Of a stretch of DNA of 64,000 nt, positions 47,981 through 52,526 are shown one piece after another. The stretch lies in the NCBI RefSeq assembly GCF_003790525.1, contig NZ_CP033635.1; one strand, written 5' to 3'. The first letter of the stretch is position 1, and each line of letters begins with the position of its first letter. The notes below the pieces were generated by a model. It had not been told where the DNA came from. It did no database searches and saw only the letters and a list, made by a program, of their open reading frames with translations. A program made the translations under genes and the position numbers. This DNA is from Escherichia coli (lineage in GTDB: Bacteria > Pseudomonadota > Gammaproteobacteria > Enterobacterales > Enterobacteriaceae).

Positions 47981-48764
<784 letters not shown>

Positions 48765-48847
48765 AAATATATCCTTCGGCTTTGCGTGGATGATAATTAT
48801 ACAGCACATGTAACGCTAATGTCATTACAGCAAAGATGCTACCCCTG

Positions 48848-48880
48848 AAATAAAAAAGCCCTGGCAGTTACCAGGGCTTG
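48848..48880 (-). terminator. rho-independent terminator downstream of rne
   Basis: minus strand hairpin gccctggtaactgccagggc followed by T-run ttttttattt. Confidence 0.65.
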
Positions 48881-48897
48881 ATTACTTGAGCTAATTA

Positions 48898-51800
48898 TTA
48901 CTCAACAGGTTGCGGACGCGCAGGAGCGGCAGAGGCATGATGCGTTGCCGTATGACCTCCTGCGGCACCTTTGCCTTCGAAGGCAAAAGTAGGGCGCTGC
49001 CAGTCACTGTGACGCGGTGCCTCCGGAACATATTCCGGTGCCGGAGCGCGCGTCATTGGCGCGGTAGCGTGGTTATGCTCAACGGTGATCTCTGGTTCAA
49101 CCGCGGCTACCGTTTCAACTTCTGCTGCGACTGGTGCGGCAGGTTGAGCAACAACTTCAGGTTCAGCAACCACAACCTCAGCAGTTTCGGCAACTTCTTC
49201 AATATCAGCCGTCTCTTCCTGCGGTTCAACTACCGGTTCTGCGTGTTCTGCAACTTCCTGGGCTACGGCAACATCAGACTCGGTAATCACCTGCGGCTGT
49301 TCAGTTACCGCGGCGGCAATTACTTCAGGATGCGTCGTTTCAACCACTTCCGGTTGCGGTTCGGCAACGTGAACGGGGGCTTCTACGACTTCAGCCACTT
49401 CTTCAACAACCGGTGCGCTAACAACCGGTTCGACAGCGGCGGCGACAGGGACCTCAGTCACCATCGGCTGCACTTGTACTTCTTCCTGTTCGCGCTGCTC
49501 TTCAACCTGTACATCTTGTGGACGTACAATCGGATAGCGGATCCAGACTTTGCCAGAGGCCAGTTCCGGAGACGCGCACGCTACGGTCAACGGCATTGGC
49601 GATTGGGTTGGATAACGCTCGTCACGATAGCGACGACGACGCTGACCACTCACGCGCAGGTGACGAGGCGAGCGGCGAGAACGACGCGGCATGCCACCGT
49701 TGTCACGGTTATCGGCATTGTTCTCTTCTTGCTGTTCTGGTGCAGCTTGCGCTACGACTGGCAGCGGGACTTTCACCAGTTCTGTGCGTGGAGCTGGCGC
49801 TTCCTGAACAATTGGTTCGCCAGCGACAGTTTCTTCAACCACCGGTGCGACTACCGCTTCTTCGGCTACGCTTTGCTCGTAACGCACTTTCTGATTGAGC
49901 TGACGCTGTTTACGACGCGGCTGAACCGGACGTACACGTTCTTCCTGTTCGGTTTCCTGAACAGATTGCTCTTCAACATTCAGCGCCTTCGCTTCTTGTT
50001 GCGCCTGACGTTTATCATCGTTACGGCGGCGGCTACGTTCACGACGCGGCGCTTGCTGCTCGTCGGTGGTACGCGCTTTTTCCGTTACCTCAGCCTGCTG
50101 ACGGCTCTCACGCGTCTCGACAGTCTGCTGCTGTGCCTGGCGACGATTACGACGGTTTTCTTCGCGATTATCGCTGCCTTCTGTACGTTCACTACGGGAG
50201 TCGCGGCGCTCATTACGGTCACGGCGGTTGTTCTGACGAGGCTTGCGACGATCCTGTTGACGTTCCGGTTTCGCTTCTGCTTTCGGTGCTGGTTGCTCGG
50301 CCGGTTTGGTTTCTTCACCACCGCTGAACAGCGCTTTCAGTGCGCCGAAGAAGCGGCTCAACAACCCTGGTTGTGCAGGAGATGCTGGTGTTGCCGTTGC
50401 AGCTTTAGGTGCTGGGGCTACAACAGGCGCGGCAGGTTCAGCTGGGGTTGGCGCTGGCGGCACATCCGGCATGGCAAAGGTTGCCAGCGCAGGTTGTTCC
50501 GGACGCTTACGTTCAGCGAACTCTTCTTCAGACGGCAGCGCCATCGCTTCTTCATGCAGCTTCGGCAGCATGTAGCTTAAGGTTGGAGTTTCTTCCCCTT
50601 TACGCACGCGCAGCACATGGTAGTGCGGGGTTTCCATCTGATCGTTTGGCACAATCACACAGCGCACGCCGTCCTGACGAGTTTCAATCGCATTCACTGC
50701 AGAACGTTTTTCATTCAGCAGGTAAGACGCGATTGGCACAGGAACAATGGCGTGAACTTCCTGAGTGTTCTCTTTCAGCGCTTCTTCTTCGATCAGACGC
50801 AGAATAGAGAGCGACAACGATTCGTTGTCACGCACGGTACCAGTACCGGAGCAGCGCGGGCAGACGTGATGGCTGGATTCACCCAGTGATGGGCTCAGAC
50901 GCTGACGGGACATTTCCAGCAGGCCAAAGCGAGAAATATGGCTGATTTGAATACGCGCACGGTCCTGACGCACCGCTTCACGCAGACGATTTTCTACCGC
51001 ACGCTGGTGGCGTACAGGCGTCATGTCGATGAAGTCGATAACAATCAGGCCGCCGAGGTCACGCAGGCGCAGCTGACGAGCAATCTCATCGGCAGCTTCG
51101 AGGTTAGTGTTAAACGCGGTTTCTTCGATATCGCCGCCGCGGGTCGCGCGTGCGGAGTTGATGTCGATGGCCGTTAACGCTTCGGTGCTGTCGATAACAA
51201 TCGAACCACCGGATGGCAGACGAACTTCACGCTGGAAGGCGGACTCGATCTGCGACTCGATCTGGTAGTGGCTGAACAGCGGGATCTCGCCGGTGTACAG
51301 TTTGATTTTGCTGCTGAAATCCGGGCGGCCTAATGCAGCGATATGCTGACGTGCCAGTTCGAGCACTTTCGGGTTATCGATAAGGATTTCACCGATGTCC
51401 TGGCGTAAGTAATCGCGGAATGCGCGAACGATTACGTTGCTCTCCTGATGAATCAGGAACGGAGCCGGGCGGCTTTCAGCGGCTTTTTTGATGGCTTCCC
51501 AGTGTTTCAGACGGAAGCTTAAATCCCATTGCAGCGCCTCAGCAGATTTGCCGACGCCAGCGGTGCGCACGATAAGCCCCATGCCTTCCGGCAGTTCAAG
51601 GCTTGCCAGTGCTTCTTTTAATTCGGTACGGTCGTCGCCTTCGATACGACGAGAAATGCCACCCGCGCGCGGGTTGTTCGGCATCAGAACCAGATAGCTA
51701 CCCGCCAGACTGATAAAGGTGGTTAATGCCGCGCCTTTGTTGCCGCGCTCTTCTTTATCGATCTGAACAATGACTTCCTGACCTTCACGCAACACATCTT

Positions 51801-52071
51801 TAATGTTGGGACGACCATGAGCACTGTAGTTAGCAGGGAAATATTCGCGGGCAATTTCTTTTAGTGGGAGGAAACCGTGACGTTCAGCGCCGTAATCAAC
51901 AAAAGCAGCTTCCAGACTCGGTTCAATGCGGGTGATTTTACCTTTGTAGATGTTTGCCTTTTTCTGCTCGTGCCCTGGACTTTCGATATCCAGGTCATAC
52001 AGACGCTGCCCATCTACAAGGGCAACGCGCAACTCTTCCTGCTGAGTTGCGTTGATTAACATTCTTTTCAT
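48898..52071 (-). CDS. rne: ribonuclease E
   Basis: 1057-aa ORF; N-terminal [32 protein letters not shown]1/catalytic domain; Arg-rich and acidic low-complexity C-terminal scaffold half. Confidence 0.95.
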
Positions 52072-52432
52072 CGTAACTTACTCATTATTCTTACATTGAC
52101 GACTAAGCTGCGGGCAAAGTAACGCCTTTCCGGGTGTGAACCGATGGCCTCGTGTCTAGTCGCGTCGCCAACCTCACGGTTATCGTCAGCTCAAAGAGGC
52201 GCAGAGTGTCGGTTGCCCGTTTTTCATGCGGAAAAACAGCGCAATTATCAAAGAAACAGACTGGGTATTACTCTCCAGAAATATTTCCATCTACCGGTAA
52301 GGACTGCAACCCGCAGCCCGCTAACTGCCTGAAAGATCAATACGTCTTACGCCATTGCTGCGTGGATGATCGGTCGGGCAAAATGGGTTATTCCGTAAAA
52401 TTTCTTGTTTTAACAAGGATGGACACGGAAAC
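52072..52432 (-). promoter_or_regulatory. rne 5' untranslated leader (autoregulatory) and promoter region
   Basis: long non-coding region upstream of rne start; extent assigned from established knowledge of the roughly 360-nt rne leader, not resolved from sequence. Confidence 0.55.
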
Positions 52433-52526
52433 GGCCTCATTATTCCACTGCAAGCCTTGTTATAGCAAGATGACTTTTACCATTTATCACCCGCTTACTC
52501 ACAGTTTTTTCACTTCTTGCTGGTGA
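52206..52526 (+). CDS. yceQ: questionable ORF opposite the rne leader (yceQ-like)
   Basis: ORF on + strand overlapping rne leader/promoter; no recognisable domain; weak call. Confidence 0.25.

Follow-up and report, generated by a model that had tools for sequence, protein, structure and literature searches.

The 64,000-nucleotide (nt) stretch of Escherichia coli DNA analysed here (assembly GCF_003790525.1, contig NZ_CP033635.1; the whole stretch is referred to as the window) carries on its minus strand rne, the gene for ribonuclease E (RNase E, protein Rne), in a form coding for 1057 amino acids (aa). This is very probably a normal E. coli gene in a minority natural allele, and the 556-codon open reading frame (ORF) found opposite to its distal part, on the plus strand, a non-coding frame -1 shadow of it. 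Both elements are already known: RefSeq lists the allele, correctly named, and the ORF opposite to it is a textbook example of a shadow ORF. The rne of E. coli strain XDL (NZ_CP043033.1), annotated as ribonuclease E (WP_023141578.1), is 100% identical in DNA over its 3174 nt, and the annotation of XDL holds no feature on the strand opposite to rne.

The deletion in the RNase E tail

The first-pass annotation had set the 1057 aa of this Rne against 1061 aa in K-12, and the reference bears this out: the rne of MG1655 is 3186 nt long and codes for 1061 aa (b1084, NP_415602.1). In a pairwise alignment of the two proteins, which are identical neither in length nor in sequence, one gap of 4 aa was located. 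Residues V981-V-A-E984 of K-12 are missing, and the remaining variation amounts to 15 substitutions, all within 559-999. Residues 1-558 show no difference from K-12, and the 29 nucleotide differences in the first 1587 nt of rne are all synonymous (29/29). At the DNA level, the gap is a single in-frame loss of 12 nt after window position 49133, the placement of which is ambiguous over 3 nt (AGT). K-12 reads CC followed by AGTAGTCGCTGA and then AGTCGCAGCAGAA at this point and the window CC followed directly by AGTCGCAGCAGAA, so that the junction shows an AGT microhomology.

The difference had been expected in the repetitive acidic and arginine-rich parts of the scaffold. It does fall in the C-terminal scaffold, in its acidic Glu/Val/Ala/Pro-rich linker, and not in an arginine-rich RRxRR segment. 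Similarly, the tail is repetitive as far as its composition is concerned (A 14.6, E 14.2, V 12.3, P 11.2, R 10.2 and Q 8.3%), while no tandem array was detected in the acidic region. Tandem Repeats Finder gave no array at the gap and, elsewhere, one weak 2-copy 12-mer; short degenerate motifs of 12-21 nt were all that the repeat finder returned. Tandem repeats as the source of either the indel or the open antisense frame were hence rejected: the bias is compositional, and the DNA is no repeat array.

The locus is assigned to the gamma-proteobacterial RNase E on account of its catalytic domains, the microdomains of its tail, the rne5 element and its neighbourhood. The 1057-aa protein matches the Pfam families S1 (E = 9.7e-13), RNase_E_G (1.1e-98) and RNase_E_G_Thio (1.8e-31), as well as PNPase_C on residues 1018-1054 (E = 1.9e-17). 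Residues 404-411 read CPRCSGTG, and positions 303 and 346 are the same as in K-12; roles of the residues at 303, 346 and 404-411 are given in PMC11788932. As in K-12, flgL lies downstream and rluC upstream. The parts of the gene, with the microdomain coordinates determined for K-12 Rne by Ait-Bara et al. (PMC4435900), are the following:

48898..52071, minus strand: rne coding sequence, 1057 aa and stop (ORF list, Pfam, DNA identity to the rne of XDL)
50485..52071, minus strand: catalytic N-terminal half, codons 1-529 (protein equal to K-12; domain boundary from PMC4435900)
48898..50484, minus strand: intrinsically disordered C-terminal scaffold half, codons 530-1057 and stop (domain boundary from PMC4435900)
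50326..50379, minus strand: membrane-targeting sequence (MTS), residues 565-582, identical to K-12 (coordinates from PMC4435900; back-translated pattern match at 50326-50358)
50140..50262, minus strand: AR1, arginine-rich RNA-binding site, residues 604-644, T625S relative to K-12 (coordinates from PMC4435900)
49879..49917, minus strand: HBS microdomain, residues 719-731, identical to K-12 (coordinates from PMC4435900)
49630..49686, minus strand: AR2, arginine-rich site, residues 796-814, identical to K-12 (coordinates from PMC4435900)
49522..49572, minus strand: EBS, the enolase-binding microdomain, residues 834-850, identical to K-12 (coordinates from PMC4435900)
49129..49134, minus strand: junction left by the in-frame loss of 12 nt, VVAE of K-12 codons 981-984 (DNA alignment with K-12)
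48901..49023, minus strand: PNPase binding site (PBS), K-12 residues 1021-1061, here 1017-1057, identical to K-12 (Pfam PNPase_C)
48856..48879, minus strand: intrinsic terminator of rne, a stem-loop followed by a T run (terminator-like site of 10 pairs, 6 of them G-C, directly downstream)
52096..52432, minus strand: rne5, the autoregulatory element of the rne 5' untranslated region, directly upstream (Rfam RF00040, 260 bits for a gathering score of 180)

All six microdomains are kept, and the conservative T625S in AR1 is the sole change in them. With the coordinates of PMC4435900, the deletion lies outside MTS, AR1, HBS, AR2, EBS and PBS, between the sites for enolase and PNPase, where it removes 4 of the ~170 linker residues (851-1020) of a stretch without assigned microdomain. 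The region, the 3' half of an essential gene, codes for the intrinsically disordered scaffold tail of RNase E, which is where the RNA degradosome (RhlB, enolase, PNPase) is assembled. Since the catalytic half and the six microdomains are intact, the 1057-aa Rne is expected, from the position of the deletion, to work like K-12 RNase E. Its endonuclease activity and its assembly of a degradosome are, likewise, predicted from the identity of the sequence.

Distribution and origin of the deletion

The frequency of the allele was assessed with a 100-nt query across the junction in complete E. coli genomes. The short junction is present, at an identity of at least 99%, in 108 of 5378 genomes (~2%), and the other 5270 have 12 nt extra relative to the query. 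It is found in two or more distinct rne sequences: the type shared by the window and XDL and that of strain 20AR0192 (98.9% identical). The comparison across species covered the outgroup Escherichia sp. MOD1-EC7003, from a membrane-targeting-sequence pattern scan of a 100,044-species collection, and one metagenome relative, from the search with the antisense protein. The degenerate MTS pattern matched one locus in this collection, fewer than expected since the E. coli alleles examined share the peptide, and the want of further matches should not be over-read. The Rne of MOD1-EC7003, the single outgroup, retains VVAE; the 12-nt loss is therefore a derived deletion and not an insertion in K-12.

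The rne of MOD1-EC7003 (L003, 2104-5271) codes for 1055 aa and has a 6-aa deletion of its own, PEVVAQ (K-12 residues 971-976), five residues upstream of the one described here. This independent and neighbouring deletion suggests a local hotspot for in-frame indels. A much larger loss is found in the urine isolate GN4738 (NZ_CM177114.1; L012, 801-3377), whose rne of 858 aa is annotated as an intact ribonuclease E. In this genome, an in-frame deletion of 609 nt (K-12 residues 743-945) runs precisely from one to the other of two perfect direct repeats of 13 nt, ACCGGTGGTTGAA, and both AR2 and the enolase-binding sites are taken out. The short rne of GN4738 may reflect a scaffold deletion that truly exists in nature, or a collapse during assembly. 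The same 13-mer is present in the window at 49834-49846, 49402-49414 and 49225-49237. Being bounded by repeats, the loss in GN4738 indicates that deletions between short repeats do occur in the Rne tail.

For the allele of the window, replication slippage or short-homology recombination may be proposed: the 12-nt loss of VVAE is bounded by the 3-nt microhomology, within a quasi-repetitive GTN-GCN-GAA stretch. A slippage of 9 nt between two copies of AGTCGC was considered and rejected, as it would cost three codons, and the observed loss is of 12 nt and bounded by AGT. The ratio of non-synonymous to synonymous substitution rates (dN/dS) in the sense frame of the tail is 0.10-0.28, indicating purifying selection overall, and the catalytic half has zero amino-acid changes in every pairwise comparison made. 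The tail is, in short, prone to short-homology in-frame deletions, yet under purifying selection overall.

This selection on the tail, together with the persistence of the allele in ~2% of the genomes and on two or more rne backgrounds, could be taken to mean that the deletion itself was selected, a shorter tether between the enolase and PNPase sites altering the geometry of the degradosome or its condensate behaviour. Such an explanation is improbable. The loss concerns a few residues of a long linker to which no microdomain is assigned, neighbouring in-frame indels arise independently in relatives, as in weakly constrained disordered linkers, and the C-terminal half as a whole is, according to PMC11788932, dispensable for viability. 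An error of sequencing or assembly in low-complexity DNA is very improbable, even if such regions are prone to assembly problems and the window differs elsewhere from its nearest relatives by 1 nt in a homopolymer run: the gap is exactly 12 nt, in frame and outside any homopolymer, and 108 complete genomes, each assembled independently, share the junction, which is found on two rne alleles that can be told apart.

The open frame on the opposite strand

The long antisense ORF was found where it had been reported, and with the same length:

48910..50580, plus strand: shadow ORF, TTG start, 556 codons, lying antisense to codons 498-1053 of rne (ORF list, frame analysis)

It is in codon phase with rne, (48910-48898) mod 3 being 0, and hence in frame -1. 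The stop-free stretch extends over 561 codons (48895..50577, plus strand), and the TAA that terminates it is the reverse complement of the TTA of rne Leu498. As each plus-strand codon is the reverse complement of one rne codon, stops are possible solely opposite to the sense codons TTA, CTA and TCA. Codons 499-1057 of rne include 15 Leu and 22 Ser, with no TTA, CTA or TCA, while codons 1-497 include 49 Leu and 33 Ser, nine of them written with one of these three triplets. The frame is thus open because Leu and Ser are scarce in the tail and none of them is written TTA, CTA or TCA. The first-pass annotation had attributed it to the repetitive and biased composition of the region; composition is indeed the cause, repetitiveness is not, and codon phase and the scarcity of Leu and Ser take its place. 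The frame stays open passively, as the -1 shadow of rne.

The length of this run was evaluated by synonymous-codon resampling of the actual Rne protein under three codon-usage models. A run of 556 codons or more was obtained in 4% of the trials with the usage of the N-terminal half of rne, in 8% with that of the whole gene and in 1% with that of the long ORFs of the window. The length is uncommon and not remarkable: it is an expected tail event for a genome of several thousand genes. Long frame -1 ORFs have been described mainly as an effect of codon usage, and some authors argue for a function, holding that such ORFs exceed the expectation from codon usage (PMC3454372). The shadow ORFs of Merino 1994 and Silke 1997, as cited in Mir et al. 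2012 (PMC3454372), share with this one the codon-aligned frame, the scarcity of TTA, CTA and TCA and the non-coding codon statistics. The ORF opposite to rne is unusually long, because Leu and Ser are so rare in the Rne tail. No other in-phase antisense run of the window equals its stop-free stretch, the other long ORFs giving 42-219 codons.

That this frame should not be annotated as a gene had been proposed with codon usage and conservation as the tests, and neither gave a sign of coding. The codon log-odds of the antisense frame is -0.053 per codon, against +0.335 for the rne frame of the same DNA. The mean is +0.307 for the real genes of the window (+0.12 to +0.35 or more) and -0.112 for the antisense frames in phase with them; the score thus resembles that of non-coding antisense frames. 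Read in the antisense frame, dN/dS comes to 1.08 with K-12 and 1.02 with the outgroup (0.34-1.9 across pairs). The synonymous rate (dS) of rne is alike in the overlapped tail (0.078 against K-12 and 0.152 against the outgroup) and in the non-overlapped N-terminal half (0.086 and 0.145), which leaves no room for a second layer of constraint. In MOD1-EC7003, two stops fall in the frame, opposite to the synonymous sense TCA codons of Ser801 and Ser824, in or next to the strongly conserved AR2 region, and the antisense ORF is shortened to 286 aa. The number of stop-creating synonymous changes to be expected was scaled from control changes at third positions. For the eight E. coli alleles examined, 2.3 were expected and 0 seen (Poisson probability of zero ~0.10); with the outgroup added, 3.8 were expected and 2 seen. 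Avoidance of stops in the frame is not significant.

The 556-aa product matches no Pfam family. Among 5.8 billion protein clusters, five contain look-alikes, none of them with a domain of its own, and these few appear to be gene-calling errors. As proof of a gene, they were rejected: P0002 stems from an assembly where the gene calls split rne into pieces, and P0005 from a metagenome scaffold containing a stretch of undetermined bases, on which antisense frames were the ones called as genes. Another, P0004, is a 760-aa "ribonuclease E, partial" with the N-terminal domains of RNase E and 98% identity to the antisense product over 34% of it, which suggests a chimeric or inverted contig joining rne to its own reverse complement. 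On the scaffold of P0005, that of the more distant metagenome relative (L011), with an rne of 1009 aa, the same in-phase frame gives ORFs of 485 and 373 aa; the open frame therefore follows composition and covers, there, the catalytic half too.

Some observations weigh against the interpretation of the locus as an ordinary allele with a non-coding shadow. The neutrality of the 4-aa deletion is judged from its position, the antisense frame is open in all eight of the E. coli alleles, the run falls in the upper 1-8% of the resampling distributions, and an in-frame ATG at 48937 is preceded, at a distance of 10 nt, by an AGGAG (the pair lies at 48922-48939). The last three would suit a genuine antisense overlapping gene, comprising the whole ORF or its part from ATG 48937 and coding for a protein rich in Arg, Phe and Leu. 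Antisense overlapping genes have, moreover, been reported in E. coli: ano (PMC5960689) and three more (PMC9927249) of E. coli O157:H7 are likewise embedded antisense in an annotated gene. Expression of the O157:H7 genes is reported there from RNA-seq and ribosome profiling, whereas the evolutionary tests on the ORF opposite to rne are negative. Set against a dN/dS of about 1 with no lowering of the synonymous rate of rne, two stops in a sister Escherichia species, no significant avoidance of stops, a non-coding codon score and the want of a protein family or of credible look-alikes, a genuine gene is highly unlikely. No sigma-70-like promoter was found on the plus strand in 48500-50700, and rne is not named in the text or examined supplements of two ribosome-profiling surveys of E. 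coli antisense genes, a weak point, as their tables may use other identifiers. Translation at a low level, as a young overlapping gene restricted to Escherichia coli in the tail of an essential ribonuclease, has an even slighter chance.

Neighbouring loci and annotation of the region

The surroundings of the 1057-aa allele resemble those of rne in K-12 MG1655, with the same flgL-rne-rluC order, rne5 element and terminator. Besides the 15 substitutions and the lost VVAE, the difference is a type II toxin-antitoxin pair between flgL and rne (47981-48764, minus strand), where K-12 has ~195 nt. A TacA-like antitoxin (Pfam TacA1, E = 1.8e-22) is paired with a GNAT acetyltransferase as the toxin. 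Among complete E. coli genomes, 685 of 5425 carry this insert; K-12, ERL03-1416, O111:H8 and M3 lack it. At 48535-48540 (minus strand, CAGCCCCCGCGCC), five consecutive C are found in the antitoxin gene, one fewer than in XDL, GPEC657, ST38 and 20AR0192. With the shorter run, the reading frame changes near codon 75 of 97, by which the C-terminal quarter is replaced and the ORF extended to 48399, into the toxin gene. Of the 685 module-bearing genomes, 683 have six C and two have five; the 5-C run may be genuine, in which case the antitoxin is inactivated by mutation, or it stems from a sequencing error in the homopolymer.

The ORF at 52152-52526 (plus strand) corresponds to yceQ of K-12 (DUF2655, b1085), opposite to the 5' untranslated region element RF00040; annotated in K-12 and not in the PGAP annotation of XDL, it is another candidate for a dubious antisense ORF. 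An ATG-initiated ORF of 293 codons at 57065-57946 (minus strand), antisense to the adjacent plus-strand ORFs 56462-57415 and 57431-58360, is probably another shadow ORF. Lastly, five of the rne matches in E. coli genomes come from records that bear a plasmid label, and the replicons concerned were probably labelled or assembled wrongly.

For annotation, the 1057-aa rne is a legitimate full-length allele, neither a truncation nor an error, and the 556-aa ORF on the opposite strand should stay unannotated. For RNase E itself, the comparison indicates a tail that tolerates short-homology in-frame deletions, of 4 aa here, 6 aa in MOD1-EC7003 and 203 aa in GN4738, a clinical isolate. Across these deletions, the catalytic half is invariant at the protein level.

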